Assembly (NCBI GenBank): GCA_035714745.1
Contig: DASTLR010000003.1
Location: 161-64,160, forward strand
Length of the DNA stretch: 64,000 nucleotides
From: Minisyncoccota bacterium
GTDB taxonomy: Bacteria; Patescibacteriota; Minisyncoccia; Phycocordibacterales; UBA6065
Direction of reading: 5' to 3'
Made by a program: the position numbers and the translations under genes. A model generated the notes under the pieces. It did no database searches, was not told where the DNA came from, and saw only the letters and a list, made by a program, of their open reading frames with translations. This document shows, in pieces, positions 11,620 through 53,309 of the stretch; within the stretch, counting starts at the first letter, position 1, and the number at the start of each line of letters is the position of its first letter.

Positions 11620-11721
11620 GCGACTATTCTACCACCGCCGCCGGCGCGCGGCACTGGCGGAAACGCCGCGGATGCGGTAAAAAGCGTCAAAACAGGGTAC
11701 AAGCGGGGGATATGCTGTGGC

Positions 11722-12090: not shown

Positions 12091-12268
12091 CAGCCAAGTG
12101 TACGCCCAGTCGCATCTTGAGTTCTATAGTCCTCTCGTGTCGAAAAAGAGCCTTTCGTCAAAATGGAGTTTCAAATGTCCATTTTAACGAAAGTCGTTTT
12201 TGCGAGACCGTCGAGGGCCCAATAGAATAAAAAGCTTACAAAAAATTCCGCAGATTCCTCGCCGCCTG

Positions 12269-27272: not shown

Positions 27273-27425
27273 GGGAATAAGCCTATTTTAGCAGGTTAGA
27301 CGCCAATAGACACGGGTGGATACTGCTAGCTACTTGTGCCCTAGGCGGCATGAATTGTAAATGGAGCTTTCTATGAAAGAAAAAGCGGCCAGAACGATAG
27401 TTTCTGGCCGCTGGAGGCCTCTCCC

Positions 27426-28730
27426 TTATGGGACGAGGCGTGTGGGACCGCGATACAGGTAGGTAACCTCACGGACATTCTTGCGATCCAGGAGGATCAT
27501 CAGAAGCCGCGTCAGGCCGAGGCCGAATCCGCCATGCGGAGGGCATCCGTAGCGGAAGAAGTCGATGTAGTGCTTGATCGACTCAAGGGGGATTCCCTTC
27601 TCGGCCGCTTGCGCCGACAGGACGTCGACGCGATGCTCGCGCTGGGCGCCGGTGGTCACTTCCAGGCCGTGCCAGAGGAGATCGAAGCTCTTGGTGAGCG
27701 TTGGGTCATCCTCATGGCGACGGTGATAGAAGGGTCGCACCTCGACTGGATAGTCCGTCACGAACACGAACTCGTGGCCAGTCTTCTCCTTGATGTATTC
27801 GGCGAGCATGCGCTCACCGGGTGGGTCGAGGTCTTCCTTGTGGGCGATCGCGTGGCCGCGCTCGGCCAGGATGGCCCGGGCTTCGGCGAGCGGGATACGC
27901 GGGAACGGCAGCATCGGAACGACGACGTCGATCCCGGTGAGCCGCTTTATCTCGTCTCCGCATTCCTTCTGGACGTAGCCGAGCGCGTAAGCGATCAGGC
28001 GCTCTTCGAGCGCCATCACGTCTTCGTGCGACTCGATCCAGGACATCTCCACGTCGACGGAGGTGAACTCCGTGTCGTGGCGGGCTGTGAACGAAGGATT
28101 AGCGCGGAAGACCGGGCCGATCTCGAAGATACGGTCGAGCCCTGCTGCCATCGCCATCTGCTTGTAGAACTGCGGCGATTGGGCGAGCGTGGCTTTGCCG
28201 CCGAAGTAGTCGAGCTGGAACAGCTCGGCCCCTGATTCGCTTGCCGTGCCCATGAGCTTCGGCGAGTGGATCTCCATGAAGCCGTTCTGCAGCCAGAACT
28301 GCCGCATCCCCTGCTCCAGAGCTGTCTGGACCTTGAAGATGAGGGTGTTCTCGGGACGGCGGATGCTAAGCGCCCGCCAGTCGAGCTGGAGGTCGAGACC
28401 GGATTCGGCTGTGATCGGGAGCAATTGCTCCGCGGGGCCGACATCCTCGATCGAATCGAGCACGATCTCCACGCCCCCGAGCTTAGCGCTCGGATTGGCG
28501 ACGACCTTGCCCGAGGCGATGATGGCGGATTCCTGCGTCAGCGCGCTGATAGCAGCGCCGAGCGGGTCTCCTTCCTTCTTCTCGTGGCAGAGCTGGATCA
28601 TGCCGGTATGGTCCCGGAGGACCACGAACTGCATGCGCTTCTGGTCGCGGATCGCGTGTGCGAAACCCGCAACTGTGACGATCGAGCCCGAGAGCGCTGA
28701 CACATCCCTGGTCAATGTTCGATTAATCAT
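27426..28730 (-). CDS. aspS: Aspartyl-tRNA synthetase, archaeal/short type (possibly non-discriminating)
   Basis: An N-terminal OB fold is followed by a class II core with motifs 1-3 (FRANPSFTARHDTEFT, QSPQFYKQ, FFRYGCPPHGGFGLGLTRL). The probable start is the ATG at 28730 (MINRTL...); the track ORF extends to 28805. Confidence 0.85.
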   Translation of the reverse strand: MINRTLTRDVSALSGSIVTVAGFAHAIRDQKRMQFVVLRDHTGMIQLCHEKKEGDPLGAAISALTQESAIIASGKVVANPSAKLGGVEIVLDSIEDVGPAEQLLPITAESGLDLQLDWRALSIRRPENTLIFKVQTALEQGMRQFWLQNGFMEIHSPKLMGTASESGAELFQLDYFGGKATLAQSPQFYKQMAMAAGLDRIFEIGPVFRANPSFTARHDTEFTSVDVEMSWIESHEDVMALEERLIAYALGYVQKECGDEIKRLTGIDVVVPMLPFPRIPLAEARAILAERGHAIAHKEDLDPPGERMLAEYIKEKTGHEFVFVTDYPVEVRPFYHRRHEDDPTLTKSFDLLWHGLEVTTGAQREHRVDVLSAQAAEKGIPLESIKHYIDFFRYGCPPHGGFGLGLTRLLMILLDRKNVREVTYLYRGPTRLVP

Positions 28731-28749
28731 GATTTGCCTTGCTTTATTT

Positions 28750-30069
28750 TTACGGCGAGATTTTACGCCGGAAAATGCGTGGGAACGGAATGGCGTCGCG
28801 CACATGCGGGATGTTGAGCATCCAGCGGATCATGCGTTCGACCCCCATGCCGAAAGCCGCGTGAGGAACGCAGCCGAGTTGGTGGACGTCACGGACGAAT
28901 TCGAAGCGCGGATCACCATGCTTGCCCTTATCCTTGAGCCGCTCGTCGAGTTCGCGGAGTTGATGGATTTTCTCGGCGGTGCCGAGGAGCTCGCCGTAGC
29001 CATTGCTCGCGATCAGGTCGGCGACGCGAGTGATTCGCGTGTCGGCCGGATCGATGCAATACGGGAACGGTTCGATAGTCCGGGGTATCCCAGTGATCCA
29101 GAACGGGCGACCAGGAAAGAGCTTGGAGAGCAAGGTTTCCTCTTCGGAGCCGAGGCTCTTGCCAAACTCATGTTGCATGCCGAGCGACGAAAGGTGCTTG
29201 ACCGCCTCTTCGTAGCTGATGCGGGGATATGGAACGGACATGCCGTCGGTGCAGAGCGTCGTGCCGAGCACCTGGAGCTCTTCCGAGAGCTCCTTCTGGC
29301 ATTTCTTGGTGAGGAAACAGATGATGTCCTCAACCATCTTGATGATGCAGTCGAGGTCGCACCAAGCCACCTCGGCCTTGATATGCCAGTATTCCATGAG
29401 GTGCCGTTTGCTGCGGCCCTCTTCCCCGCGGAAGCTCGGTCCCATATTGTAGACGCGCTCGAAGGCGTGGACCGCCGCTTCGAGGTAGTATCCGACGCAT
29501 TGCGTCAAGAATACATCCTCGTCATGGACGGTCAGCTTCATGGCCGTGCCGTCTTCGTAGAGCGGCACCGGCGTGAGTATCGGCGCGTCGATCGATGTGA
29601 ACCGGTTGTCTCGGAACCACTGCCGCATGTGATGCATCAGGCTGTCCCGATATTTCAAGATGGCCATTACCTTCGGGTTGCGGAGGTAGATATGGCGGTT
29701 GGCGAGCAGATGGGGCGTCATGCCTTCTGCGAAGATGTCGAAGTCGGAGCGCGGGTGCGGATCGAATCCGCGGGTGACCCCGCCGACGAGCGTGATGTCA
29801 TGCGCGGCGATTTCGAGGCGGCCTTTAGGCGTCCTCGAAACGACTCCTTTGACGACGATGCCTGATTCGACAGGGATATCCCTGGCGATCTCAGACGCTC
29901 CGTTCGAGCCATGCTCGGCGGAGACGACGACTTGGATCTTGCCCGTGCTGTCGGACACATCCAAGAACGTGATGCGGCCCTGGTCCCGCTTGGAGGAGAC
30001 CCAGCCTGACAAGTCGACCTGGTCTCCGGGTTGAGCCCGGAGGAGGTCGGCTACGAATACAGTCTTCAT
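28750..30069 (-). CDS. asnS: Asparaginyl-tRNA synthetase
   Basis: Class II motifs are MGPSFRGEEGRSKRHLMEYWHIKAEVAW and GCVPHAAFGMGVERMIRW. An N-terminal OB fold is present. Length is 439 aa. Confidence 0.8.
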   Translation of the reverse strand: MKTVFVADLLRAQPGDQVDLSGWVSSKRDQGRITFLDVSDSTGKIQVVVSAEHGSNGASEIARDIPVESGIVVKGVVSRTPKGRLEIAAHDITLVGGVTRGFDPHPRSDFDIFAEGMTPHLLANRHIYLRNPKVMAILKYRDSLMHHMRQWFRDNRFTSIDAPILTPVPLYEDGTAMKLTVHDEDVFLTQCVGYYLEAAVHAFERVYNMGPSFRGEEGRSKRHLMEYWHIKAEVAWCDLDCIIKMVEDIICFLTKKCQKELSEELQVLGTTLCTDGMSVPYPRISYEEAVKHLSSLGMQHEFGKSLGSEEETLLSKLFPGRPFWITGIPRTIEPFPYCIDPADTRITRVADLIASNGYGELLGTAEKIHQLRELDERLKDKGKHGDPRFEFVRDVHQLGCVPHAAFGMGVERMIRWMLNIPHVRDAIPFPRIFRRKISP

Positions 30070-30176
30070 AGTCTGACCCTTCCTTGGTTGGTTATTGTAT
30101 CGGTTTCGAGGAACTTCGGTCTGTGCCGGAGTCTTGTTTCACATTAATGAAAAAAGCAAACTGTGTCAATACCTAC

Positions 30177-31236
30177 TTAGAATTCGATGGATATGGTTCG
30201 GGCGGCCGGGTCGATTCGCACCTTTCTACCATACGGTATGGGTATCTGAGGATGTGTGTGCCCAAAATCAAGATTTTGTATTACTGGCGCCTTTGGATTG
30301 TATCGACGGAATTCTGCGAGCACATGTTCCCGCTGTTCGCGCCTGTAAGCAGCTTTAGCAGATGACCCTTTCGGGTCCGAAAAGTTCCACGCTTTTGGAC
30401 GGCCCACAAGGAGGCCTTTGGCAGCTCCTAAGATTTTCTTTCTTCCGAGCTTCCTTAGTATCGAAGCGACTTTTCGAGCAGATGGCACTTCTTCTGAGGT
30501 CTCAATGAGCAGAACCGCGTCCTTGAATTGATCAAGTGTCGGCATATCATTTCCCGAATCAAGCATTGCATTGATTGACTCAAGACAACCACCCCATGTT
30601 ATTCCCTCCACTATCAAGTCTCCGTCCCAGAACCAACCCTCATTTGGTTCGAAACATCGCTCCTGCTTAAGCGACTCTGGATTACTCCAGTCGACGTCGA
30701 CATCAGAGTATACGCTACTCGACATGAGGTCCACCCGGCCCTTCCTGAAGAGCGCCTGATTGATAAAACGATCTGTGAACTTATCAGGTCCTTCCTTGTG
30801 GGCGAATTGGGTGAAGAGTGCCGCGCCGTAATACGAAGGCACGCCAAGGAGCCAGAGGAAACTCATGAAATGGGTATTGTCGCTGAAGCCAAAAAAAGGC
30901 TTAGGGTTTAATGCGAACGGTTTCCGAGGCAAGAGCTTCATATATGTTGCCTGATCATCGCCACCAAGAGTGGTCACTACCCCTTTGATTTCCGAGTCAG
31001 AGAAGGCTGCAACTAGATCATTGATACGCTCGTCGACTGACGCGCCGAGTTTTCCTGTTGAGGGATATTCTACGGGGATAAGCCCGAGCTTACGGATTTG
31101 CTTCAAGCCAAGCTCATATACATGAGGCCACTTCCCCGGCGCGGCAAATGAAGGTGATAATATTGCCACCTTGTCACCTCTTTGGAGTTTTCGGAGTCTC
31201 TTGAATCTCACAAGATAATCATACGATATAAACATA
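30177..31236 (-). CDS. LD-carboxypeptidase, peptidase family S66 (LdcA/MccF family), in a low-GC island
   Basis: GDKVAILSPSF marks the family's N-terminal conserved segment, and the nucleophile Ser is in GFSDNTHF. The ATG at 31236 (MFISYDYLV...) sits just after a perfect terminator. The longer track ORF to 31490 reads through that terminator. Confidence 0.8.
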
Positions 31237-31258
31237 AAAAGGGCGCCGTAAGGCGCCC
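31236..31258 (-). terminator. Rho-independent terminator after the amidohydrolase gene
   Basis: On the minus strand the sequence is GGGCGCC-UUAC-GGCGCCC followed by UUUUUAUGUUU. Confidence 0.75.
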
Positions 31259-31263
31259 ATCTC

Positions 31264-32298
31264 TCAAAACCCAAAAAAAGCTTCGGCGTTCTTGCGAAAG
31301 ATCCGTTGCTTTGCCTGGTCTCGCATCTCGAGAGGCAAACTCTCGATAGCATTCCGAAGAGCGGTAAGGCAGAGCCAATGGCTATGCTCAGCCCCTTTAG
31401 CCAAGTGTCCATAGACCTTGTGCTCTTCCGGATCGGTCCAATGATACTGATACGATGTGACGATCCGCTGGCCCTTTTCCGGGTGAACATAGGGCCGCGA
31501 CCTGATTAGGTTAAGAGGTTCGTCGCTCCCATACATGATACGGCTGATACCGAAAGATTCGATAGCGAGCTTCATAACCTCTTCCGACGGGTTAAGCGAT
31601 GTATCCATGCTCACGTTCGGAGCTTCAGCGATTCGGCGATAGGCTTCGGCTAAGCCAGATACAACGAATTTCGTCGAACCGAGGTGGGCGATTGATATTC
31701 GTAAGGCTGGGAAATCCGTAACGACCTTCATCAGATCATCCTGGCTTTCCACAATCATCCGGGGTAGATGAAGGATAATCGGGATACCAAATCGCTCAGC
31801 CGCCACAAGGATCTCTGGAGGAAAACATTGATAGATCTCTTTGGCTGTTGGCTCGACATACGAATAATACATTTTGAGTGCCGAAACACGTGGGTGGAGC
31901 AACATCCGAATCGTATACTCGGGATCCTCTGGCAGGCCAAATAAGGCGACCCGATCATTTGGCGGGCTATCAGAGAGCAGATACTGGTTCACTTTGCGAT
32001 GGTCTATGCCCCGGAAAGTTTTAGCGAATCGGAGCGACCTGATCGATTTACCAGGGTGAAAAACCTCTCTTACCTTTTCCGACTCCTCGATCGAAAAGCA
32101 AGGGAAAGTCGAGAGCATATGACGAAAGGTCTTTTCGCCCATATCTCGGATATGCTCAGGAAGTGTTGCATGGGCATGACAATCGACGATATCGCTTGGC
32201 AGCCAACGAGTGAATGACTCGATGGATGTTTTCTCTCGGTCAGAGAGCGCCATGGCATGCGCGAGATACGCATCTCTGTTTATAGTTGTTGCGAGCAT
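31264..32298 (-). CDS. Metal-dependent amidohydrolase (amidohydrolase-2/TIM-barrel hydrolase family)
   Basis: 344 aa. The N-terminal metal-binding motif is IVDCHAH, and later segments are ISIAHLG and MYGSDEP. GC is ~45%. Confidence 0.6.
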   Translation of the reverse strand: MLATTINRDAYLAHAMALSDREKTSIESFTRWLPSDIVDCHAHATLPEHIRDMGEKTFRHMLSTFPCFSIEESEKVREVFHPGKSIRSLRFAKTFRGIDHRKVNQYLLSDSPPNDRVALFGLPEDPEYTIRMLLHPRVSALKMYYSYVEPTAKEIYQCFPPEILVAAERFGIPIILHLPRMIVESQDDLMKVVTDFPALRISIAHLGSTKFVVSGLAEAYRRIAEAPNVSMDTSLNPSEEVMKLAIESFGISRIMYGSDEPLNLIRSRPYVHPEKGQRIVTSYQYHWTDPEEHKVYGHLAKGAEHSHWLCLTALRNAIESLPLEMRDQAKQRIFRKNAEAFFGF

Positions 32299-32370
32299 GT
32301 GTTGTCTATTTGAGTGTTCATCTCTTAATAGAGCCTACATGCCGCAGATCGAGCAGTCAACCTGTGTACT

Positions 32371-33768
32371 CTACGGCGTCAAACGCTTAACACCTCGATA
32401 AAGATACGTCACATCTCTCACGTTCGAGATGCCGAACACTTTCATTAGCATGCGTGTTGGGCCCGGAGCGAATCCTCCATGTGGGGGACAGCCGTACCTG
32501 AAGAAATCGATATAGGTCTTGAATGAAGCGAGGTTGAGACCTTGCTCCTCGATCTGTTTCGATAATCTCTCAACACGATGCTCCCTTTGGGCTCCGCTCG
32601 TTATCTCGACCCCATTCCATAGGAGGTCAAAGCTTTTGGTGATTGTCGGGTCCTTTTCATCTCGCATGCTGTAGAATGCTCTTACTTCAGTCGGGAAATC
32701 ATGGATAAATACGAATTCATGGCCGAATTTCTCTTTGACATACTCGCATATAGCCCGCTCTTCTTCTGGGCTCATGTCGCCGCCACGCTCATTCGGAATG
32801 CCTCTAGCGGCAAGTATTTTTTTTACTTCACGGATCGATATTCTTGGGAACGGAAGAGCGGGCACAGGCAAATCTCTGCCGTATATCTTAAGAATTTCGT
32901 CGCCGTGCTTTTTTTTGACGGCGGCTATCATCGCCGTCACCATTTTTTCTTCTTGATCCATTAGGTCATGATGTGACGATATATATGACATTTCGATATC
33001 ATACATAGTGAACTCGGTGTCATGTCGGGAAGTGAAAGAAGGATTCGCTCTGAATACAGGACCTACTTCGAAGACACGCTCGAATCCCGCCGCCATCGCC
33101 ATTTGCTTGTACAGCTGAGGAGATTGGGCGAGCTTGGCCGTCTCGTCGAAATATTTCACTTCGAACAGCTCGGCGCCTGACTCTGACGCAGTTGATATGA
33201 GCTTTGGCGAATGAATCTCTATGAAATCGTTTTCGATACAGTACGTTCTAAAGGCCTGCTCCATTGTCGTCCAGACCTTGAATATAAGAGCATTCTCAGG
33301 TTTACGGAGATCGATCCACCTCCAGTCAAGACGTATCTGCTGATCAGTTTCTTCGTTTCCCTTCTTTACGACTACGGGTATAGGCAGCTCTGGATCTGCG
33401 ACAGAGAGTATTTCGAGCCGCGTTATCTCTATCTCTACCCCTCCAGGGGCTTGATCGGCTTTTTTTGCCTTACCTGCGAGTGCGATGACGGATTCGAGCG
33501 AAAGCGTCTTTAATTTTTCGAACTCGGGATTGTCTTTAGTGGCGAGCGCTTGAACCGTGCCTGTTATATCGCGAAGCACTACGAAGATAATCTTGCTCTG
33601 TACTCGCAGGGCATGCACGAATCCCCTAACGACTATTTCTTCTCCCACATGGGCTGCGACTTCCTTGGCGTGGATCATATAATGATATTTGTATCGGAGA
33701 AATAAAAGACCCTCCGAACTCATAGGCTTGTAATGAATTCGCAGGGGCGATTTAGATCGCGGTGCCAC
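32371..33768 (-). CDS. Second aspartyl-tRNA synthetase paralog (archaeal type) encoded in low-GC DNA
   Basis: About 70% aa identity to the 27426..28730 protein across the core (for example HSPKLISTASESGAELFEVKYFDETAKLAQSPQLYKQMAMAAGFERVFEVGPVFRANPSFTSRHDTEFT). All three class II motifs are intact. GC is ~46% versus ~60% for the native copy. The start is uncertain (M1 at 33768, M16, or M31 at 33678). Confidence 0.85.
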   Translation of the reverse strand: MAPRSKSPLRIHYKPMSSEGLLFLRYKYHYMIHAKEVAAHVGEEIVVRGFVHALRVQSKIIFVVLRDITGTVQALATKDNPEFEKLKTLSLESVIALAGKAKKADQAPGGVEIEITRLEILSVADPELPIPVVVKKGNEETDQQIRLDWRWIDLRKPENALIFKVWTTMEQAFRTYCIENDFIEIHSPKLISTASESGAELFEVKYFDETAKLAQSPQLYKQMAMAAGFERVFEVGPVFRANPSFTSRHDTEFTMYDIEMSYISSHHDLMDQEEKMVTAMIAAVKKKHGDEILKIYGRDLPVPALPFPRISIREVKKILAARGIPNERGGDMSPEEERAICEYVKEKFGHEFVFIHDFPTEVRAFYSMRDEKDPTITKSFDLLWNGVEITSGAQREHRVERLSKQIEEQGLNLASFKTYIDFFRYGCPPHGGFAPGPTRMLMKVFGISNVRDVTYLYRGVKRLTP

Positions 33769-33894
33769 CCTGTCTTATAACTCTGTGCCGCGTGCGTGCG
33801 GCGCCCGGAGGCCATCCTCTTCCTCGCCGGTCGTTACTCGGGTCGTCGGAGTCGTATATATGCTATAGCTTTTGGGCGGCTTTTGCAACCGCTC

Positions 33895-37185: not shown

Positions 37186-37842
37186 TTATTTGATCTCGAT
37201 CCAATTCCCTTCGCTGACGACCTCGACCTTTTCGTCTGCAACTTTGATGGCTGAAGCATCGTCGAGAGCGTACGTCTTTCGTCCGGTTCCCTCTACGGCT
37301 TTACGGATATTCTTCTCTCGCAACAGCGGGAACCATTTGGAATCGAGGTGAGGCAGCACATAAAAATCTACGAAACCAAGGCCCGGCATGTCTTCCTTTC
37401 GATCAAAGTCTTCTTCATAGACGATTTGAGATATCTTGAGCGACAGGTCGGGATTAGTGACCATGGTGCCCGCGCTGATGCCAGCATAGAGACGCGTCTC
37501 GAGCAATCGCGGCAATTCCGCGGCAAGGCCTGATTTATTCAACCATTCCATAAGGTGATAAGTATTGCCGCCGCCGACAAAGATCACGTCGGCCGCTTCC
37601 AATCGCGGCAGCCACTGCTTTTTCTCGAGCGCTGATATGTCTACGATATCGACAGACTTAAGGCCGAGCCTCTGTATCTGCGCCAGATTGTCGAGAAGCC
37701 ACCCTTTGTCGCCTGGCTCGACGTTCGCTGCCGTGGGTATGAAAGCAAGCGAAATCCGGCTCGCTTTCTTTCCTGCGAGCTCGAAAAAAGCCCCTTCTAT
37801 AGCCTTATTCGTTATTCCTGCCGATGTAAGAAGTAATTTCAT
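37186..37842 (-). CDS. Peptidase E (S51 family dipeptidase/cyanophycinase-like)
   Basis: The protein begins MKLLLTSAG and contains VGGGNT and the catalytic Ser region AGISAGT. Length is 218 aa. Confidence 0.75.
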   Translation of the reverse strand: MKLLLTSAGITNKAIEGAFFELAGKKASRISLAFIPTAANVEPGDKGWLLDNLAQIQRLGLKSVDIVDISALEKKQWLPRLEAADVIFVGGGNTYHLMEWLNKSGLAAELPRLLETRLYAGISAGTMVTNPDLSLKISQIVYEEDFDRKEDMPGLGFVDFYVLPHLDSKWFPLLREKNIRKAVEGTGRKTYALDDASAIKVADEKVEVVSEGNWIEIK

Positions 37843-39121
37843 TTAAGCGCATGGTCTCCTGCGTCCCCCTCTCCATGTCTTTGACCACGACCTTGCCTTC
37901 TTTGGCCTCGTTGGGGCCGTAGATGAGGGCGTACGGGATGCCCTTGTCGCTCGCGTAGCCGAGCTGCTTCTTCATGTCGCCCGGCTCGAAATAGAGGATG
38001 GCGTTCACCCCGGCCGCGCGCAGGTCGCTCGCGAGCTCAAGGTAGTCGTCGGTCAGGCTCTCGTCCAGGTTGACGATGAGCGCGCGAGCGGTAGAACGAG
38101 CAGGAGCGATCAGGCCGAGCTCCTCGAGAGCGGCATAAAGCCTGTCTAGGCCAATGCTGGCCCCTACTGCCGGCACCTGCCTGCCCGAGAACATGCCGAC
38201 GAGGCCGTCATAGCGGCCGCCCGAGAGCACGCTGCCGAAGGCGGGCAGAGCGGTCAGGTTCGTCTCGAAGATCAGTCCCGTGTAATAGTCTAGGCCGCGA
38301 GCGATGGAGAAGTCGATGACGAAGCGCGCTTCCGCCAGCTCGTACGCCATCTCGACGATAGCGACCAGTCTCTTCAGGGGCACTCTGACGCTCGGGAAGG
38401 CCTGGGCTACCTCTTCGAGCTCGGCCACGTTCTCTATCCCGTCGATGGACGTCTCGGCAAAAGCGGCGACTTGCTCGACCAGGGCCGGCTTGATGCCTGC
38501 CTTGGCAAGCTCCTCGGCCACACCCTCCTTGCCTATCTTGTCGATCTTGTCTACGGCGCGAATGGCCGCGACCTTCTCTTCAGCGCTCAAACCGAGCGAG
38601 TCATAGAACGCGCTGATGATCTCCCGCGAATTGACGCGCACCACGAAATCGGACGCCTTGACGCCCAGCTTCTGCAGGGTGCCGGCGGCCAGGGCCAGGA
38701 TCTCGGCATCGGCCAGGGGCGACGTCGAGCCGACGATGTCCGCGTCGCACTGGTAGAACTCGCGGAAGCGGCCCTTTTGGGTGTTCTCGGCGCGCCAGAC
38801 CGGCGAGACCTGGTAGCGCTTGAAGGGCTTCTTGAGGTCGCCGTTCATGGCCACTACGCGAGCCAGAGGGATGGTCAGGTCGTAGCGCAGGGCCACGTCG
38901 CGGTCGCCGTTGTCGCGGAAGCGGTACATGAGCTTGTCGCCCTCGTCGCCGTACTTGCCGGTGAGCACTTCCGCGTACTCCAAAGCCGGCGTCTCGAGCG
39001 GCTCGAAGCCGAACGTCCTGTACGACGACTTGATGGCCTCGATCATGCGCTCGCGAGCGATCTGCCGCTCCGGCAGGAAATCGCGGAAGCCCTTGAGGAT
39101 CTTTGGTTCTATCTGTGGCAT
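37805..39121 (-). CDS. hisS: Histidyl-tRNA synthetase (copy 1, ~60% GC)
   Basis: Contains KGFRDFLP, RYDLTIPLARVVA, FREFYQCDADIVG and GGRYDGLV, plus a C-terminal anticodon-binding domain. Length is 438 aa. Confidence 0.9.
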   Translation of the reverse strand: MPQIEPKILKGFRDFLPERQIARERMIEAIKSSYRTFGFEPLETPALEYAEVLTGKYGDEGDKLMYRFRDNGDRDVALRYDLTIPLARVVAMNGDLKKPFKRYQVSPVWRAENTQKGRFREFYQCDADIVGSTSPLADAEILALAAGTLQKLGVKASDFVVRVNSREIISAFYDSLGLSAEEKVAAIRAVDKIDKIGKEGVAEELAKAGIKPALVEQVAAFAETSIDGIENVAELEEVAQAFPSVRVPLKRLVAIVEMAYELAEARFVIDFSIARGLDYYTGLIFETNLTALPAFGSVLSGGRYDGLVGMFSGRQVPAVGASIGLDRLYAALEELGLIAPARSTARALIVNLDESLTDDYLELASDLRAAGVNAILYFEPGDMKKQLGYASDKGIPYALIYGPNEAKEGKVVVKDMERGTQETMRLNEITSYIGRNNE

Positions 39122-39232: not shown

Positions 39233-39733
39233 CTAAAGTATAGTTTTATTCTCCAGGATGTCAGATATCCTCTTCATGATATGGTCTTGTACTTCTCCCC
39301 AATCAAAGTATTCTTTGTAATCTTTTGGATTGATTAGTTTTATCTCGGTGATGTCTCCGTCAGGGTCGGCGATGAATGGTCCATATGGCTCAACGATGCA
39401 AAGAGTGCGGCTTTGATTAACCGTACGCCCCGGCATAAGAATATTTTGATAGCCAAGCGGTATCTGGCGAAGCACTCGCATGTTGGATTCTTCTTTAACT
39501 TCCCTCTCCGTCGCTTCGGCAAGCGATTCGCCTGCTTCTATCCTTCCTCCGATCGGTGTCCACCTCTCACGGCTCTTGTCATAGACAAGTACCATCTTGC
39601 CATTGCAGATGCAGACGGCGCCAATGCTCTCGAAGGGCAGATGTTTGACTTCATCGTATGATTCGATATCTCGGTATGTCACGTCGACTAGTCCTTCCGT
39701 ACGGCTTTGGATCTTAATCTTTATTTCCATCAC
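39233..39733 (-). CDS. NUDIX hydrolase
   Basis: The Nudix box is GGRIEAGESLAEATEREVKEESN. Length is 166 aa. GC is low. Confidence 0.8.
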   Translation of the reverse strand: MMEIKIKIQSRTEGLVDVTYRDIESYDEVKHLPFESIGAVCICNGKMVLVYDKSRERWTPIGGRIEAGESLAEATEREVKEESNMRVLRQIPLGYQNILMPGRTVNQSRTLCIVEPYGPFIADPDGDITEIKLINPKDYKEYFDWGEVQDHIMKRISDILENKTIL

Positions 39734-40002
39734 GAAAGTATATCACTTGCTTTTTATAAAGATATTCAATAGAGTTTTGAGGCTATGACCGCATATCACA
39801 GCCACACGAATACGAATCTCATCAAGTCCTGCATGCGCGGAGCCGCCCAGGCGACCTTCGTCATGGATTCGAGCATTCTATTGCGTATAGCCGATATGCG
39901 TTAAACCTCTCCTCACCGCAGAATTGACCCATCCCGGCTGGACGCAAGCCGGGATTTCTTTTGCCCGCGCCCTATCCAGCATTAATCGTTAGTTCCTTAG
40001 AT

Positions 40003-40605
40003 ATGACCATGAAAGCACAAGACAAAAGCGCTCGGCACGTCGTATTCCTCCGCGGCAAGAAGACCTTCTTGCGACCGCTTGAAGAAGGCGACCTGCCGCT
40101 CTTGACCAGGTGGATCAATGACCCAGAAGTGACCAGGTATCTGACGGCCTATCTGCCTCAGAGCCTGGAGAGCGAGAAGGAATGGTTCGCCAAGCTGAAA
40201 AGCAACAAGAACGAGGTCACCCTGGGGATCTGCACGCTCGACGGCACCCTGATCGGCGTGATGGGCACCCATCACATCAATTGGAAGGATGGCACGACTA
40301 CGACCGGAGCCTTCATCGGAGAGAAGAAGCTCTGGGGCAAGGGCTACGGGACCGATGCCAAGATGCAGCTCCTTAACTATTGCTTCAACGAGCTCGGCCT
40401 CCGCAAGATCATGTCTCGGGTCATCGCCTTTAACGGCCGCAGCCTAGCATACAGCAAGCACTGCGGCTACGTAGTCGAGGGCACATCCCGTCTCGAGGTC
40501 TTCAAGGGAGGCCAGTATTGGGACGTCATCGATCTTGGCCTCTTCAAGGAGGAATGGCTCCCCTATTGGCAGAAGTATCAGAGAGGCCTGAAAAAGGCAC
40601 GCTAG
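40003..40605 (+). CDS. GNAT N-acetyltransferase, RimJ/RimL (Acetyltransf_3) family
   Basis: The N-terminal segment LRPLEEGDLPLLTRWINDPEVTRYL is typical of RimL/RimJ. The acetyl-CoA region is LWGKGYGT. The start is taken at the ATG at 40003. Confidence 0.75.
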   Translation: MTMKAQDKSARHVVFLRGKKTFLRPLEEGDLPLLTRWINDPEVTRYLTAYLPQSLESEKEWFAKLKSNKNEVTLGICTLDGTLIGVMGTHHINWKDGTTTTGAFIGEKKLWGKGYGTDAKMQLLNYCFNELGLRKIMSRVIAFNGRSLAYSKHCGYVVEGTSRLEVFKGGQYWDVIDLGLFKEEWLPYWQKYQRGLKKAR

Positions 40606-40611
40606 CGACAA

Positions 40612-40636
40612 GCCCGGCACAGCGCCGGGCTTTTTT
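40612..40636 (+). terminator. Rho-independent terminator after the GNAT gene
   Basis: GCCCGGC-acagc-GCCGGGC followed by TTTTTT. Confidence 0.8.
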
Positions 40637-41111
40637 ATGCCGTAGCTGACATCCCGAGCATTCTCTCGAATTCCTTTCGATACTTCTCGAGAGTGTGCGC
40701 GAACCCCGTATGGAGCGGCTGGGGCAAAGCGTCGAGGGCGAACCAGCTGATCTCTGCCATTTTTTCAGGCTCGCAGATGCTGACGCGGGCAGGATCGACC
40801 CTTACAAAGAACGGCGCGGCGATCCAGTGCGTCATAACGCCGTTCTGCTCCCGAAAGATGTCATGCGCGGGCAGAGAGCCGATGATCTCTCCCTCGGCGC
40901 CGTATTCCTCTCTGACCTCCTGGAGCGCGTTCTCCTCGAGCGAGAGGTCGAATTCGAGCTTTCCCGAGCCTGGGTCCCAGCGCCCGTGCTCGTCGCGACA
41001 GTTCTCCGTCCTCTTGTGCATGAGGAGTCGTCCCTTCCCGTCTGTGCAGTAGAAGGGCGTCGTGACGCCCACGAAATCGATGCCGATCTTCATAGTGTTT
41101 CTCTTATGCAC
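40635..41111 (-). CDS. NUDIX hydrolase
   Basis: The Nudix box is GSGKLEFDLSLEENALQEVREEYG. Length is 158 aa. Confidence 0.75.
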   Translation of the reverse strand: MHKRNTMKIGIDFVGVTTPFYCTDGKGRLLMHKRTENCRDEHGRWDPGSGKLEFDLSLEENALQEVREEYGAEGEIIGSLPAHDIFREQNGVMTHWIAAPFFVRVDPARVSICEPEKMAEISWFALDALPQPLHTGFAHTLEKYRKEFERMLGMSATA

Positions 41112-41179
41112 TGTATTGTACCAAAATAAAAAACCACTTATCCCGAAGGAAGAGTGGTGAGAAAGCGCGGGGGCGCGAT

Positions 41180-41251
41180 GGGACTCGAACCCACAACCGT
41201 AGGTTCCACAAACCTGCGCTCTACCATTGAGCTACGCGCCCACACTGCAAA
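41180..41251 (-). tRNA. tRNA-His (anticodon GTG). Canonical cloverleaf with C73 discriminator, but the genomic -1 position is T, not G.
   Basis: The sequence is GGGCGCGTAGCTCAATGGTAGAGCGCAGGTTTGTGGAACCTACGGTTGTGGGTTCGAGTCCCATCGCGCCCC. The acceptor stem is 7/7. The D stem is GCTC/GAGC. The anticodon loop is TTGTGGA. The T loop is TTCGAGT. CCA is not encoded. The 5' flank is ...GTGT. Confidence 0.85.
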
Positions 41252-41274
41252 AGAGCTGACAAACGATATATTAC

Positions 41275-42624
41275 TTATTGCGCCGAGGCTGTCAATATCC
41301 GGTTCGTCACAAAGACGATATTCTCGGCTGCCACCTCCGACTGCTTCTTCAGCCTCGTATCTTTTACCTGGGCTAACCCTTTGGCCATTTCGTTGCCGCC
41401 GGCGATTACGATCACGGGGATTCCACGACGAAGCGCATAAGCGAGCTGGGCTTTCAGGTTAGTTTCCTTTCCTAGATAGAGCTCGGCTCGGATCATACCT
41501 TTACGAAGGATACCCGTGATCGACTGGCAGTAGCTCTCGGCATCGGGATCGAAGTTGAGGACGATGGCTTGAACTGTCGTTCCCTCCTTCTTTACCAGGC
41601 CGAGCGATTCCATGGCCGCAAACAGGCGGTCGACTCCGACCGAAGCACCCGTAGCAGGAATGCTCTGGCTTCCGAAGCGCGACACGAGGTCGTCGTAACG
41701 TCCTCCCGAAAAAACGCTGCCGATCGAGGGAAGGTCGAGCAGCGTCGTCTCGAAGACAGGCCCCGTGTAGTAACCGAGGCCGCGCGCAACCGAGAGATCG
41801 ACCTTCCATGCCGACCTCGGCACTCCGAGGGAATCGACCCCTTTCACGATGGCGCGGAGCTCGTCGATGCCTTCGAGCGCGACAACCGATTCTTTCATCA
41901 GGTCAGCCAATCCGTCGAGCGTCGCGTCGATGGTGTCGCCCTGGGTGCCCAAGAATGTGCTCAGTTTGGCGATCTGAGCCTTGGTAAGCTCTTTTTGAGC
42001 GAGCTCGTCCGATACCCCCTGCCAGCCTATCTTGTCGATCTTGTCGAGGATGCGCAGGATGTCAGGATTGAGGGTGCCGTCATACTCAACGAATGCAGGC
42101 AGGCCGTTCAGGACCTTCCTGTTGTTGACGCGGATCTGGAAGCGTTCCAGCCCCAAAGCCTTCATCGTCTCATACATGAGCGAGACGATCTCTGCGTCGG
42201 CGCTAGTCCGGGCCGATCCGACGATATCCGCGTCGAATTGCACGAACTCGCGGAACCTGCCCGCTTGCGCCTTTTCGCCGCGCCAGACCTTTCCCGTGTG
42301 ATAGCGCTTGAACGGCAAGTCGAGCTTGTCCGAATAGAGCGATACCACGCGAGCGAGCGGCACGGTCAGATCGAAGCGGAGAGCCAGGCCCTCGTTGTTC
42401 CCCTTCAGCCCCGTCTTAAAGATCTGCATGCCGAAGTTGGAATCGCCACCTGTCAAGATAGCCTCCCTTTCGATACCGGGGGTATCGATCGGGGCAAATC
42501 CGAACCGCTCGAAAACGGCCCTGATCGTGTCGAACATCTTCTGCCGGGGGATCATATCCTCGGGCAGGTAGTCTTTAAAGCCTGAAGCGAGTTCAGGGCT
42601 GATCCGTATGTCAGAGTTCATCAT
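41275..42624 (-). CDS. Histidyl-tRNA synthetase paralog (copy 2)
   Basis: Contains SGFKDYLP, RFDLTVPLARVV, FREFVQFDADIVG and GGRYDDLV, plus a C-terminal anticodon-binding-like domain (VIVIAGGNE). About 50-55% identity to copy 1. Length is 449 aa. Confidence 0.85.
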   Translation of the reverse strand: MMNSDIRISPELASGFKDYLPEDMIPRQKMFDTIRAVFERFGFAPIDTPGIEREAILTGGDSNFGMQIFKTGLKGNNEGLALRFDLTVPLARVVSLYSDKLDLPFKRYHTGKVWRGEKAQAGRFREFVQFDADIVGSARTSADAEIVSLMYETMKALGLERFQIRVNNRKVLNGLPAFVEYDGTLNPDILRILDKIDKIGWQGVSDELAQKELTKAQIAKLSTFLGTQGDTIDATLDGLADLMKESVVALEGIDELRAIVKGVDSLGVPRSAWKVDLSVARGLGYYTGPVFETTLLDLPSIGSVFSGGRYDDLVSRFGSQSIPATGASVGVDRLFAAMESLGLVKKEGTTVQAIVLNFDPDAESYCQSITGILRKGMIRAELYLGKETNLKAQLAYALRRGIPVIVIAGGNEMAKGLAQVKDTRLKKQSEVAAENIVFVTNRILTASAQ

Positions 42625-42728: not shown

Positions 42729-43547
42729 CTAAGACATCGCCGCGAGGACTTCGATGACACCAGACGTCACTTCGCCCCTTGCCGTATAGGCGCACTTAGA
42801 TTTGAATTCGGGTGAAGCGTTGGCAACGGCGCAGTGGACGACCCCCTCTTTTGGATGGTAATCGGTCATGCTGTCTCCGACGACTATCACTTGGCGGCCG
42901 GGATATTTCGCCTCAACCCATGGAATCGCCTGCGCTTTCATGGTGCCAAAGTGATGGATAATGCAGATGCCGTAGTCATCGTTCATATCGACATCGAAGG
43001 CACACTCCTGCTTACCCGAGCGAGCAAGGAATTCACCGCATAGCTTCCTCATCAATCCGGCGCTCCGAGCCCATCGCCCTTGCGATTTTTCGAGCGCGTA
43101 GAAGCTCAGACTGGCCCTGCGAAGACTATTAACGAGAACGGCGCGCGAAGCGCTCGACGGAGCCTCCATACCCGGCAACTGTCGGGACAGGTTGTTCACA
43201 TCATGACAAGACACAAGCGCACCGATAGCCAAGGAATAATCGATGATACGCTTCCACGCCCCATCAAATACGTCTGATCGGTCTCCCAGTATTGCCGCCG
43301 GCTCCGCGCCATAACTCTCCCCAGCGATCGCGCAAGCCCCTTTTTCAGCGATTATCGGTCCCGTATGGGACCATTGGTCCATATAAGCCTTTATCGTCTC
43401 TATCGCCGAATCAGAGCTGACGCCGACGATATGTCCTGCAGCGACCGTCCTCCCAATCGCCACGCGAAGCTCCTCAACCGCAGTCGTCGGGCGATAATTC
43501 TTACCGATGACTGTATTGTCCAGGTCCAAAAGAAATATCTTTTTCAT
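42729..43547 (-). CDS. HAD-superfamily phosphatase (Cof/HAD-IIB-like)
   Basis: Motif I is LLDLDNTV and motif IV is VGDSMTD. Length is 272 aa. Confidence 0.7.
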   Translation of the reverse strand: MKKIFLLDLDNTVIGKNYRPTTAVEELRVAIGRTVAAGHIVGVSSDSAIETIKAYMDQWSHTGPIIAEKGACAIAGESYGAEPAAILGDRSDVFDGAWKRIIDYSLAIGALVSCHDVNNLSRQLPGMEAPSSASRAVLVNSLRRASLSFYALEKSQGRWARSAGLMRKLCGEFLARSGKQECAFDVDMNDDYGICIIHHFGTMKAQAIPWVEAKYPGRQVIVVGDSMTDYHPKEGVVHCAVANASPEFKSKCAYTARGEVTSGVIEVLAAMS

Positions 43548-43653
43548 AGTTCTCTCCTGCCCTGAACCTTATAGCAATTCCTTGCAATGTCAATAGAAAT
43601 CACCGCCACGGAGGTTCTTGACTAGTTCATCTGCTGATATAGTATGCAAGTAG

Positions 43654-44526
43654 TTGATCCTTAACCTAACGAATATGCAAAAAGAAATTGTCGGACTCAC
43701 GACTTTTCACGGTTCTGAACCCGGGAAAACAGTCGCTATCATGGCCGGTGTTCACGGAGATGAGCCCTGCGGCCTCCGTGCGCTCGAAGCCCTTGCCAAG
43801 GATTTGATCGTCAAGCGGGGAACGGTCCATTTCCTCATCGGTAATCCAGAGGCCATCAAGCTAAATAGGCGCCAGTTCGAGTGGAATCTCAATCGAGCGT
43901 TTAGGCCGGACATCGTAGAAAATTCTCTTACGTCGTATCAACGGAAAAGCTATGAGCGCAAGCGAGCACTCGAGATAATGGAGGTGCTAAAAGAATGCGA
44001 TGCGCTACTGGATATCCATTCGTCGATGTCGATAGAAAGCACGCCGTTCATCATCTGTGAGAAGTCCGCTTTCCCGATAGCCCGTCGCCTTCCCTTTTCT
44101 ATCCTTTCCTTTGGATGGGACGAAATCGAGCCCGGAGGCACTGATTATTTCATGAGCGCTCATGGCAAGATCGGCATATGCATAGAATGCGGATGTCACC
44201 TAGATTCAAGCGCGCCCGCGATCGCCGAAAAGTCTGCAAGGACGTTCTTGACGCTCATGGGTTCGATTGACGGAGATATCCCGCCCGTGACAAAGAAGAG
44301 GCTCATTGATGCGTATAGGGTCTATCATCCCTCAGGGGACTTTGTCCCAGCGAAGGAATTTGCTGATTTTGCCCCGCTCAGCACAGGAGAACTCATTGGA
44401 ATGGACGGGCGAATCCCTATTTACGCAGGCAAGGACGAGGTGATTATTTTTTGCAGAAAGTGCAATAAGCCGGATGATGAGGCGTTTATCCTTGGCCGTG
44501 AGATATTCGGATATTTGCGAGACTGA
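43654..44526 (+). CDS. Succinylglutamate desuccinylase/aspartoacylase (AstE/AspA) family zinc hydrolase
   Basis: The zinc-binding segment is GVHGDEPCG, followed by a later His/Glu segment. Length is 290 aa. GC is low. Confidence 0.6.
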   Translation: MILNLTNMQKEIVGLTTFHGSEPGKTVAIMAGVHGDEPCGLRALEALAKDLIVKRGTVHFLIGNPEAIKLNRRQFEWNLNRAFRPDIVENSLTSYQRKSYERKRALEIMEVLKECDALLDIHSSMSIESTPFIICEKSAFPIARRLPFSILSFGWDEIEPGGTDYFMSAHGKIGICIECGCHLDSSAPAIAEKSARTFLTLMGSIDGDIPPVTKKRLIDAYRVYHPSGDFVPAKEFADFAPLSTGELIGMDGRIPIYAGKDEVIIFCRKCNKPDDEAFILGREIFGYLRD

Positions 44527-44576
44527 TCACTAATCGATAGCACGTGAATGCTATCGAATTTTATTTTCGAATCTAA

Positions 44577-45464
44577 TTATTCGAGCAGCGAAAAAAAAGC
44601 CTTGTTAAATTTATCCGCGCTTATGTCAAACGCTACCCTGGCCGCATACTTCCCCCCCGAGAATACTTCGCCTTCCCTTAATCCCGAGACGTGTATACCT
44701 ACCATATCTTCTTTAAAAGACAGGTATTCACCCGTAACCGCCGCAGCTAGAGTCAGCGGGTCATATAACTCGAATGATCGTTTTTTGGGGTAGCCAAAGA
44801 AGCGATACCAATTCTCGACCGCCTCACTGACGAAGCGAATCACGGCGCCTTGGCCTAAATTCTTGAGAGAGCTGTCCGAGACGAGGCAACGGTTCGTGAC
44901 ATCTAGAGGTACTATATAAACGTCTTTTGCGTTTTGCAGGATCGTTTCCACCGCCTTCGGGTCTTGGAAAAAATTATATTCTGCATATTCTGTCTGATTT
45001 CCCGGCACGTTGAAAGCGCCGCCCATGAGATATATCTTCTCTATGTTCTCTGCAACCTTCGGATTCTTAGCTATCGCCCTGGCTATGTTGGTAGGAGCCG
45101 CCAGGCATATGATATTAACTTTTCTTTCGCGGGCCATTCTTGCTATGAAATCGCTCGCCTCTTCGTTAGCCTTTGACCCAGTCGGCGCAGGTAGCGAGAC
45201 GTCGCATATACCGTTTGTTCCGTGGTAATCATATGCATGTACGAACTCGCTACCGGTGATCGATTTAGACGCCCCTGCATATACGGGTACATTCCAGCCG
45301 ATGAGTCCCGCGATCCTTAGCGTGTTCTCCGTCGCCTCCTCGAGCTTTACATTGCCACCACAAACGGTTATGCCAAGAACGTCTTCCTTACAGAGCTTAG
45401 CGGCCAATATGATGGCTAGGGCGTCATCTATTCCGGTATCGACATCTATGATTATATTTTTCAT
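44577..45464 (-). CDS. Nucleoside hydrolase (inosine-uridine preferring IUNH family)
   Basis: The signature IIDVDTGIDDALAI (DxDxxxDD) is present. The internal ATG start gives MKNIIIDVD. GC is low. Confidence 0.85.
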   Translation of the reverse strand: MKNIIIDVDTGIDDALAIILAAKLCKEDVLGITVCGGNVKLEEATENTLRIAGLIGWNVPVYAGASKSITGSEFVHAYDYHGTNGICDVSLPAPTGSKANEEASDFIARMARERKVNIICLAAPTNIARAIAKNPKVAENIEKIYLMGGAFNVPGNQTEYAEYNFFQDPKAVETILQNAKDVYIVPLDVTNRCLVSDSSLKNLGQGAVIRFVSEAVENWYRFFGYPKKRSFELYDPLTLAAAVTGEYLSFKEDMVGIHVSGLREGEVFSGGKYAARVAFDISADKFNKAFFSLLE

Positions 45465-45789
45465 TTTGATGATTAAGCGGACATACCCGATAAACCGAAA
45501 CACCTCCACAATCGAGAGGTGTTTTAGCTAAATTTTAAATTATCGCTCCAAACACCCTACGAAATGATTCCGTGATGGTGGGAGTTATAGACGATGCTAC
45601 CTGTGTGCGCAACCATATTAGTAATGCAAATAATACACTTTGCTTACCAAAAAAGTAGTTGACAAATGTATAAATTGTATCCGGATTATTGACAAGCGGT
45701 ACGGGTATTCTATCCTTAAGGCAGAAATGGCTTCGCCTAACTGCGAGGCCGTGCGTTAGTTAACATGTTACAGACCATGCAGGTGATAC

Positions 45790-46791: not shown

Positions 46792-46867
46792 ATTACGACT
46801 CCGTGCTGCAACGCACGGAGTTTTTTATTCAAGAAACATTCCTCAATTTAGCCGCTCAGGCTCTCGG

Positions 46868-48499: not shown

Positions 48500-48517
48500 A
48501 CGGATGCTATAAACGGA

Positions 48518-49045: not shown

Positions 49046-49047
49046 AT

Positions 49048-50254: not shown

Positions 50255-50313
50255 GGCAATAATTATACCACGGTAAAAGAAAGCGGGGTGAATGAATTCA
50301 CCCCGCCGTTAGA

Positions 50314-50868: not shown

Positions 50869-51007
50869 GGTGCATACCTCCTTTCAGGTTATATTATAGC
50901 ATATGCATACATAATCTGTCAATACTTATAGATATTTGGGCTTAAAATCGGCATTCGAACATCCAAAAGACATTGCTATTCCCAGCGGCCCATGGAAAAG
51001 TGTAAGG

Positions 51008-53263: not shown

Positions 53264-53309
53264 AGTATTCGAAAAATTATAGCAAAAAGGACCCCGCTTT
53301 CACAGGATC

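Follow-up and report, generated by a model that had tools for sequence, protein, structure and literature searches.

Why should a member of the Patescibacteria carry, one after the other, two genes for aspartyl-tRNA synthetase (AspRS), a third gene for an enzyme resembling asparaginyl-tRNA synthetase (AsnRS), and a peptidase from the family of the microcin C immunity enzyme MccF? This question is raised by a stretch of 64,000 nucleotides, hereafter the window, from a Minisyncoccota bacterium (GenBank assembly GCA_035714745.1, contig DASTLR010000003.1, positions 161 to 64,160). A first-pass annotation described a low-GC island with an S66 peptidase, an amidohydrolase and a second AspRS beside a native aspS-asnS pair. 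It took this for a two-layer resistance module against an antibiotic mimicking aspartyl-adenylate, in which the peptidase destroys the drug and the second AspRS is a spare or insensitive target. We found that the pairing of hydrolase and synthetase does recur in relatives, but that the roles of the synthetases are reversed: the low-GC AspRS (AspRS2) is the housekeeping enzyme, and the AsnRS-like gene together with the other AspRS (AspRS1) forms an accessory cassette. Our preferred reading, held at slightly below even confidence, is that the locus joins an enzyme hydrolysing aspartyl- or aspartamide-adenylate mimics to a redundant set of synthetases.

Gene order of the locus

The five genes are co-directional, all on the minus strand. 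In order of transcription, the genes and the hairpins associated with them are:

32371-33678, minus strand: AspRS2, 435 amino acids (aa), first in transcription order
31264-32298, minus strand: Amidohydro_2 protein, 344 aa, second
31241-31258, minus strand: GC hairpin with a T-run, terminator-like, between the amidohydrolase and S66
30177-31235, minus strand: S66 peptidase, 352 aa, third
28750-30069, minus strand: AsnRS-like class IIb synthetase, 439 aa, fourth; cassette gene 1
27426-28730, minus strand: AspRS1, 434 aa, fifth; cassette gene 2
27384-27412, minus strand: strong terminator-like hairpin, closing the S66-AsnRS-AspRS1 run

Genes for GluRS, MurG, FtsW, an S11 carboxypeptidase, ScpB and ScpA flank the locus on one side, and genes for an ABC exporter, TrpRS, an S51 peptidase and HisRS on the other; proteins of the window have the GenBank accessions HEU0080436-HEU0080444 (Candidatus Paceibacterota bacterium). 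Because terminator-like hairpins precede S66 and follow AspRS1, with none between S66 and the AsnRS-like gene, S66 may be transcribed with AsnRS-AspRS1 and not with AspRS2 and the amidohydrolase.

The accessory cassette and its neighbours

Eighty loci (L089-L168) were obtained when metagenomes were scanned with the AsnRS-like protein; with few exceptions, the next gene downstream on the same strand is of AspRS1 type. This pair is compositionally foreign in many other genomes, where GC content at third codon positions (GC3) of the cassette is at least 0.10 above that of the host in 17 of 39 loci (up to +0.4; e.g., L124, L133, L141, L147-L153 and L103). What had been taken as a native aspS-asnS pair is this accessory cassette. 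Clustering of all flanking open reading frames (ORFs) gave the neighbour families listed here, with their densities in 0.74 Mb of cassette loci and 0.97 Mb of control loci, mostly Patescibacteria DNA:

HIT protein of ~150 aa: 27 loci; 31 per Mb in cassette loci, 0 in control
S51 peptidase: 16 loci; 20 per Mb in cassette loci, 4 in control
Amidohydro_2 family: 15 loci, usually directly after AspRS1; 18 per Mb in cassette loci, 0 in control
S66 peptidase: 10 loci, directly after AspRS1; 15 per Mb in cassette loci, control not comparable (control loci centred on S66)
ORF of ~93 aa (F5) before the AsnRS-like gene: 12 loci
AspRS2-type genes: recurrent

When the loci were dereplicated at 90% AsnRS identity, a HIT, S51 or S66 gene lay at most two genes from the cassette in 27 of the 46 resulting lineages, many of the others being contigs too short to tell.

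In each of the families of MccF, MccH and MccG, some enzymes have been shown to inactivate the warhead with which microcin-C-like antibiotics inhibit AspRS (PMC8323819), and the neighbours of the cassette belong to particular subtypes. The S66 peptidases found beside AspRS1 elsewhere are 29-35% identical to E. coli MccF; that of L100 matches MccF at an E value of 1.5e-54, BA_5613 of B. anthracis at 3.5e-62 and LdcA chains at 1e-20. The motif ExxxxxHxHxK, in which a catalytic Lys replaces the third His and which defines the MccH clade of aspartamide-adenylate phosphoramidases, apart from HinT (PMC7157772), is present in 22 of the 27 HIT neighbours. The S51 family includes MccG, which cleaves processed microcin C (McC) (PMC9239234). 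The linkage of AspRS genes to enzymes of microcin C immunity families, recurrent in relatives, is real.

Large serine recombinases (four loci) and a type IV coupling protein also adjoin the cassette, and class I S-adenosylmethionine (SAM) methyltransferases are frequent neighbours. The adjacent HIT, S51, S66 and AspRS2 genes have GC3 values that are host-like or lower. The window shows the same polarity, with the cassette above the hydrolase and AspRS2 genes, and only the host background differs. Candidate explanations for the GC excess of the cassette are repeated transfer from GC-rich donors or some other bias. The F5 ORF (no Pfam match, '..LVDKSSSPTAAY..') stands immediately before the AsnRS-like gene and is conserved in its loci, which include L097, L098, L110, L113, L128, L131, L138, L141, L142 and L144; it was not detected in the window.

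The hydrolases

Both the N- and the C-terminal Peptidase_S66 domains were recognised by Pfam in the S66 protein of the window (PF02016, 1.7e-18; PF17676, 1.6e-20), and the GFSDNT nucleophile motif seen in the first pass is there, within FFGFSDNTHF. In phmmer searches the protein matched BA3275 at 1e-37 and the MccF proteins of B. anthracis and E. coli, including BA_5613, at 1e-20 to 1e-17, whereas the LdcA-type chain 6uuk was reached only at 1e-7 and the P. aeruginosa LdcA chains were not matched. Aligned with E. coli MccF from an mcc plasmid and with E. coli LdcA, its GFSD, IETSEE and FGHT correspond to MccF S118, E243 and H311 and are invariant in 32 homologues. The W186 of MccF is the adenine-stacking Trp on an insertion loop (PMC8323819). 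This loop of ~29 residues is present in the window protein, where 'DVDW' aligns to MccF 'SINW186', while E. coli LdcA has a gap across all of it. Furthermore, the NCBIfam LdcA model NF008424 gave 33 bits against a cut-off of 378, and the peptidoglycan-recycling neighbours that would speak for an LdcA were absent, with no AmpG-, NagZ-, AmpD- or Mpl-like gene beside the subfamily in 77 genome loci. The enzyme therefore resembles MccF in its triad, its W186 loop and its phmmer ranking, as first proposed, but not in global identity, which is 21% to MccF and 22% to LdcA; on these features it probably belongs on the MccF side of the family.

The subfamily of the window S66 comprises 3099 homologues, 52-59% identical and mostly from Patescibacteria. 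A conserved AspRS linkage of this subfamily was sought and not found, the nearest homologues lying in unrelated variable contexts. The commonest neighbour of the subfamily (L003-L082) is an S51 peptidase of another subfamily, in 11 of 77 loci and with no synthetase nearby; CYTH-like, HAM1-like and nucleotidyltransferase-like genes also recur there. In one cassette locus (L139) a member of the same S66 subfamily (44% identity) directly follows AspRS1.

The amidohydrolase (PF04909) has invariant metal ligands, D39-x-H41-x-H43, H177, H205 and D259. Its AlphaFold2 model has a pLDDT of 95 and gave only generic Amidohydrolase-2 decarboxylases and hydrolases in Foldseek, at a TM of about 0.55; a sequence search of the PDB returned no match. 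The enzyme is firmly linked to AspRS genes of either type, as it adjoins AspRS2 in L083, L084 and a 9449-bp contig and directly follows AspRS1 in at least eight loci. A Dtd3-like deacylase and an isoasparagine amidase were considered as its function, and neither was supported.

Composition and origin of the low-GC block

The compositionally distinct block noticed in the first pass is real and may be summarised as:

about 30070-33790, no strand: low-GC block, ~3.7 kb, about 49% GC (GC3 0.50-0.54), in a genome of about 61% GC

The GC content had been put at 45%, slightly below the measured value. Sliding GC is 0.46-0.52 within the block and 0.56-0.65 in the flanks, and GC3 is 0.50 for S66, 0.54 for the amidohydrolase and 0.525 for AspRS2, compared with 0.78-0.88 in 11 surrounding genes. 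Both GC3 borders are abrupt and fall in two intergenic spacers, with values just outside of 0.88-0.93 at the 3' end of the ABC gene and 0.80-0.85 at the 5' end of the AsnRS gene. An assembly chimera can be ruled out because a 5-kb contig (L001) from another sample, assembled independently, crosses both borders at 99-100% protein identity, containing the ABC 3' end, AspRS2, the amidohydrolase, S66 and the 5' part of the AsnRS gene. The block thus has the deviant composition and sharp borders of an island. About ten low-GC patches, this one included, occur along the window, with further ones at 36.6-37.7, 39.0-40.1, 43.2-46.0 and 47.4-55.8 kb. The spacing between the three island genes is tight (72 and 28 bp), and because they also share their GC3 they probably arrived together.

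No integrase, att-like repeat or true tRNA flanks the block, and an integrative element with att sites or a tRNA target was rejected for want of any meaningful flanking repeat or tRNA. The sole flanking repeat is 21 nt long at 76% identity and pairs the start region of the AsnRS gene with a site inside the AspRS2 coding sequence. An ARAGORN call of 'tRNA-???' at 31191-31285, with a two-base anticodon, falls on the terminator-like hairpin that separates the amidohydrolase from S66, and most probably does not represent a real tRNA.

Relatives of the locus were located through homologues of AspRS2 and the amidohydrolase. Two of them (L086/L087, 46% GC) have the order HisRS-(Ddl)-TrpRS-NUDIX-AspRS-ScpA-ScpB-S11-FtsW-MurG-GluRS, and their single AspRS is 78% identical to AspRS2. 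A third (L083, 42% GC) has TrpRS-..-AspRS (73%)-Amidohydro_2 (60%)-ScpA-ScpB-S11, and the 9449-bp contig, from JGI, has TrpRS-AspRS (79%)-Amidohydro_2 (66%)-439-aa synthetase-434-aa synthetase-DUF305-ScpA-ScpB. The identity of AspRS2 to its syntenic relatives, 73-81%, is comparable to that of the backbone genes. Because relatives carry an AspRS at the same backbone position, between TrpRS and ScpA, AspRS2 and the amidohydrolase fill the place that AspRS held ancestrally in the Paceibacterota gene order. Judged by this synteny, the AsnRS-like/AspRS1 pair is an add-on and S66 the only true insertion relative to the closest arrangement, such that only part of the island, AspRS2 and the amidohydrolase, is found at the same site in relatives. 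AspRS2 is the lineage's ordinary housekeeping enzyme and not a spare. The idea that it was acquired as a spare or insensitive target is not supported, given its position in the ancestral slot, its being the only AspRS in relatives and its unchanged pocket motifs.

The relatives have 41-54% GC, so the composition of the block is typical of the phylum and it is the host that is the outlier. The simplest history is that a relative of lower GC donated the 3.7-kb block, by import or by allelic replacement. Low GC is no mark of a foreign paralogue here, the compositionally native pair being the accessory one. In L083 (5165-6290) and L084 a cassette-free relative keeps a truncated 289-aa AsnRS-like remnant and an F5 ORF beside AspRS2-amidohydrolase, which indicates that the cassette was lost at the same site. 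The closest backbone relative (L085) has come to two AspRS genes in a different way: its AspRS2-type gene is followed directly by one for a 470-aa, GAD-less bacterial-type AspRS (11347-12759; NF001750, 613 bits in two stretches).

The two AspRS enzymes

AspRS1 and AspRS2 are 54% identical in protein (234/434), less than the 70% or so first estimated. Both are above the NCBIfam cut-offs for archaeal-type aspartate--tRNA(Asn) ligase, with AspRS2 scoring 491 bits with NF003483 (cut-off 353) and 409 with TIGR00458 (cut-off 368), and Paceibacterota homologues of AspRS2 are 65-81% identical to it. When aligned to solved structures, the L1 anticodon loop of AspRS2 ('..DQA-P-GGVEI') is shortened and matches the loop 'KA-P-GGLEV' of T. 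thermophilus AspRS2 (1N9W), a PDB entry titled 'non-discriminating and archaeal-type', whereas the AspRS1 loop ('..SA-K-LGGVEI') matches 'KA-K85-LG' of T. kodakarensis AspRS (3NEL). A census of the loop found x-K-L-G-G in nearly all of 58 AspRS1-type sequences and KQA-P-GG in most of 138 AspRS2-type sequences. Work of Feng et al. from 2003 and 2005 and of Charron et al. from 2003 is said to have found that the loop Lys blocks recognition of tRNA(Asn) and that Pro permits it. Among the papers searched, none was found to support the W26/K85 discrimination determinants; the distinction drawn here also comes from direct comparison of the loops with 1N9W and 3NEL. As far as can be told from these loops, AspRS2 would be of the non-discriminating and AspRS1 of the discriminating type. 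The enzyme first regarded as a spare target would then be the very paralogue that serves tRNA(Asn), which speaks against that model. The amidotransferase GatCAB was not found within the 64-kb window.

A comparison of the adenylate pockets, suggested in the first pass as a way to recognise an insensitive copy, gave no such sign: the Asp/ATP motifs QSPQxYKQ, FRANPSFTxRHDTEF, D.E and GAQREHR are identical in both families. The families are discriminated by 13 conserved positions alone, and only two of these lie within the compared active-site motifs, both in motif 3 (GFGLG in AspRS1 vs GFAPGP in AspRS2), where the variant is common to the whole AspRS2 family. Both families (27426-28730 and 32371-33678) have FRAN and not the near-universal FRAE in class II motif 2, RHDTEF in place of RHLxE(F/A) and, in motif 3, TR in place of ER. 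These shared departures suggest that the two enzymes are sister paralogues with their origin in this bacterial group.

The AsnRS-like enzyme

The asnS label given in the first pass, like the GenBank annotation as asparagine--tRNA ligase, agrees with the best PDB match of the AsnRS-like protein, P. horikoshii AsnRS (1.4e-77), and the protein retains a full anticodon-binding domain and the class II motifs. It sits less well with the scores, which fall below both NCBIfam AsnRS cut-offs (289 vs 414; 263 vs 343), and with the Asn-recognition residues, which have been replaced. Specificity of AsnRS comes from the hydrogen bonds that one Glu and one Arg form with the amide (PMC7387524). In our mapping of residues by alignment, E228 of P. 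horikoshii would become Lys231 and the Arg of GGSQRE would become Lys367, preceded by Glu366, where canonical AsnRS has (Q/E)-Arg; in addition QS.Q is changed to QC.(G/A). None of the three changes varies among 60 cassette sequences, and they co-vary perfectly in a scan of 1.84 billion representatives, in which K + (E/D)K is found in at least 29 clusters at 50% identity and canonical AsnRS clusters carry E/D + xR. The enzyme may have either a rearranged recognition of Asn or an altered substrate or inhibitor profile.

Proposed mechanism and alternative explanations

In the reading that we prefer, S66 would hydrolyse the carboxamide bond of aspartyl- or aspartamide-adenylate mimics, i.e., processed microcin-C-like warheads, and in sister genomes an MccF-type S66, an MccH-type HIT protein or an S51 peptidase at the same position would do the same job. 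AspRS1 and the AsnRS-like enzyme would supply both products that are lost when a non-discriminating AspRS is poisoned, namely Asp-tRNA(Asp) and, with GatCAB, Asn-tRNA(Asn). There is a precedent in mcc-like clusters, some of which contain synthetase genes that have been proposed to confer self-resistance (PMC8323819). The anatomy, composition, synteny, family signatures and neighbourhood statistics were observed directly; what S66 acts on, and whether the cassette enzymes are insensitive to a drug, is inferred.

A number of observations weigh against it. No toxin is, to our knowledge, known for this habitat. Neither MccB/ThiF (tblastn with E. coli MccB) nor MccA nor a dedicated transporter was found in the window or in ~170 loci, and the window has no HIT gene. 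Its S66 belongs to a distant subfamily, no closer overall to MccF than to LdcA, which lies at most two genes from an AspRS in only 3 of 77 genome loci and is usually unlinked. AspRS1 and AspRS2 do not differ in their Asp- or ATP-binding motifs, so neither is marked as drug-insensitive. The hydrolases and the cassette are not one transferred unit, because in other genomes the hydrolases have host-like GC3 and the cassette is richer in GC. Lastly, the sole Parcubacteria MccH-like protein assayed was inactive on E. coli McC (PMC7157772).

The main rival, which is possible though doubtful, is a housekeeping dual route like that of Thermus and Deinococcus. Here AspRS2 and GatCAB would serve an indirect route and the AsnRS-like enzyme and AspRS1 a direct one, while S66, S51, the amidohydrolase and HIT proteins would scavenge, freeing Asp and Asn from peptides and nucleotide conjugates for an auxotrophic episymbiont, with no antibiotic involved. 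Such a route accounts for the three synthetases, and the coexistence of AsnRS, a discriminating AspRS, an archaeal non-discriminating AspRS and GatCAB is documented (PMC4206432); both points also count against the immunity reading. The Pro and Lys loop signatures split the AspRS families cleanly, and L085 likewise has two adjacent AspRS genes, one of AspRS2 type and one GAD-less and bacterial. For the hydrolases, it can be said that S51 PepE enzymes are Asp-X dipeptidases, that an aspartoacylase-like gene is present in the window, and that S66 and S51 are neighbours in 11 of 77 genomes of the Candidate Phyla Radiation (CPR) without a synthetase nearby. However, scavenging leaves unexplained why the HIT neighbours have the MccH-specific catalytic Lys motif and not the HinT triad, and why the neighbouring S66 peptidases are of MccF type. 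A direct route also sits poorly with an AsnRS-like enzyme that has lost the canonical Asn-binding Glu and Arg, and for an indirect one no GatCAB was found in the 64-kb window.

The model of the first pass, in which S66 and AspRS2 were acquired together and AspRS2 is an insensitive spare beside native aspS-asnS, is unlikely. Shared GC3 (0.50-0.54) and close spacing of the three island genes favour a joint arrival, S66 is MccF-like, and motif 3 of AspRS2 (GFAPGP) is unusual. Yet this motif variant is family-wide and hence not specific to the copy, AspRS2 has the loop of a non-discriminating enzyme, and together with the amidohydrolase it fills the ancestral slot as the only AspRS in relatives. 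Furthermore, a terminator-like hairpin splits the amidohydrolase from S66, and elsewhere the accessory, hydrolase-linked unit is the AsnRS-AspRS1 pair. The related suggestion that the island is the immunity part of a producer cluster was rejected, as there are no mccA/mccB-type genes in the window or the fetched loci and the MccD-like matches reflect generic class I methyltransferase similarity.

We give a similarly small chance to a third pathway that is neither translation housekeeping nor defence, e.g., a synthetase of new specificity that feeds a tRNA- or adenylate-dependent modification, with the hydrolases recycling intermediates. Three co-varying pocket substitutions across so many clusters would suit a new specificity, as would the conserved F5 ORF and the frequent class I SAM methyltransferases. 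However, the AsnRS-like enzyme keeps its full anticodon-binding domain and class II motifs and is always paired with an apparently ordinary AspRS, and no biosynthetic core enzymes were seen in the window or the loci.

We consider it very improbable that S66 is a peptidoglycan-recycling LD-carboxypeptidase of the LdcA type and that its place beside duplicated synthetases is accidental. The LdcA or LD-carboxypeptidase labels that JGI and NCBI give its relatives, and an overall identity to E. coli LdcA at least as high as that to MccF, stand against an MccF loop and Trp that LdcA does not have, an LdcA model score far under its cut-off, LdcA structures matched weakly (6uuk) or not at all (P. aeruginosa), and the absence of recycling neighbours.

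Relation to known systems

Like MccF of the E. coli mcc operon and BA_5613 of B. anthracis, the window S66 has both S66 domains, a Ser118/Glu/His triad and the W186 loop. As with most MccF homologues, it stands alone without a biosynthetic cluster. It differs in being only ~21% identical to MccF and in belonging to a separate CPR-wide subfamily whose nearest structure is the uncharacterised BA3275; the true MccF-type S66 peptidases (29-35% identical) adjoin the cassette on other contigs and not in the window. Likeness to MccH and MccG lies in the cassette-adjacent HIT proteins with ExxxxxHxHxK and in the S51 peptidases beside the cassette, with one 6 kb away in the window. Here, too, there are differences, as the window is without a HIT gene, the S51 clade was assigned by eye only, and none of these genes is in an mcc cluster.

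Thermus thermophilus and Deinococcus radiodurans likewise have three class IIb synthetases, including an archaeal-type AspRS with Pro and an L1 loop shorter by one residue (PMC4206432). In the present locus, in contrast, both AspRS enzymes are archaeal-type sister paralogues, 54% identical and with the FRAN motif 2, the three genes are clustered, the specificity residues of the AsnRS-like enzyme are non-canonical, and GatCAB is not in the window.

Resistant paralogues (MupA IleRS2, AbmK SerRS, AgnB2 LeuRS and the synthetases of actinobacterial mcc-like clusters) offer a further comparison. The cassette resembles them in being a second synthetase of the same specificity beside toxin-inactivating families, and in being compositionally foreign in many genomes. 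Unlike them, it has no biosynthetic genes nearby, the duplicated unit is a pair, and the AspRS enzymes show no pocket difference; active-site substitutions relative to the housekeeping copy, the mark of a resistant paralogue, are lacking in the AspRS pair, whereas the AsnRS-like enzyme does have a remodelled pocket.

Other genes of the window

One further feature lies close to the locus:

37186-37842, minus strand: S51 peptidase, separate, low GC (GC3 0.58), between TrpRS and HisRS

It is 6 kb from the cassette region and is labelled 'Type 1 glutamine amidotransferase-like' by NCBI. Its third triad residue is apparently Asp ('ALDD'), as in the MccG clade, the clade being judged by eye. A second HisRS gene (41275-42624) is present besides the one at 37805-39121, and tandem HisRS pairs also occur in L085 and L172. 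The order at 39233-42624 is a NUDIX gene (low GC), a RimL/MccE-type Acetyltransf_3 GNAT (39961-40605), a second NUDIX gene, tRNA-His (41169-41241) and the HisRS paralogue.

The low-GC regions of 43200-55800 hold genes for an aspartoacylase/AstE-like protein, a nucleoside hydrolase and a histidine kinase + SET-domain pair, as well as glycosyltransferases, two further NUDIX proteins and a histidine phosphatase. The SET and histidine kinase pair is also found just upstream of the cassette in L095, L101 and L114. At 154-4620 is a gene for a 1488-aa protein with five LVIVD repeats, beta-propeller matches and a Peptidase_S74 (endosialidase chaperone) domain, which is probably a large surface protein.

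Significance

The individual elements described here are known. New are their combination, their placement at the target genes, their spread in Patescibacteria and the AsnRS-like subfamily with its QC/K/EK residues; we found no paper that links CPR synthetase paralogues with microcin-C-type immunity genes. This subfamily offers a direct test of whether an essential enzyme has changed the way it recognises its substrate or has come to evade an inhibitor.

More broadly, and as a possibility that we consider doubtful, Patescibacteria might carry a widespread, partly mobile and multi-layer immunity locus against peptidyl-nucleotide toxins that target AspRS, in which a hitherto unrecognised core of the AsnRS-like enzyme and a discriminating AspRS would bypass the poisoned non-discriminating AspRS, alongside interchangeable MccF-, MccH- or MccG-type hydrolases and Amidohydro_2; the window would be one example of such a combination. 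If this is true, ultra-small episymbiotic bacteria would be facing, or using on one another, aspartyl-adenylate mimics as a major weapon. The microcin C immunity toolkit of MccF, MccH, MccG and target duplication would extend into the Candidate Phyla Radiation, and the immunity genes would be tied physically to the genes of the synthetases under attack, and not to producer clusters. Such loci could then guide genome searches for new antibiotics that mimic aspartyl-adenylate and for new resistant AspRS or AsnRS enzymes.

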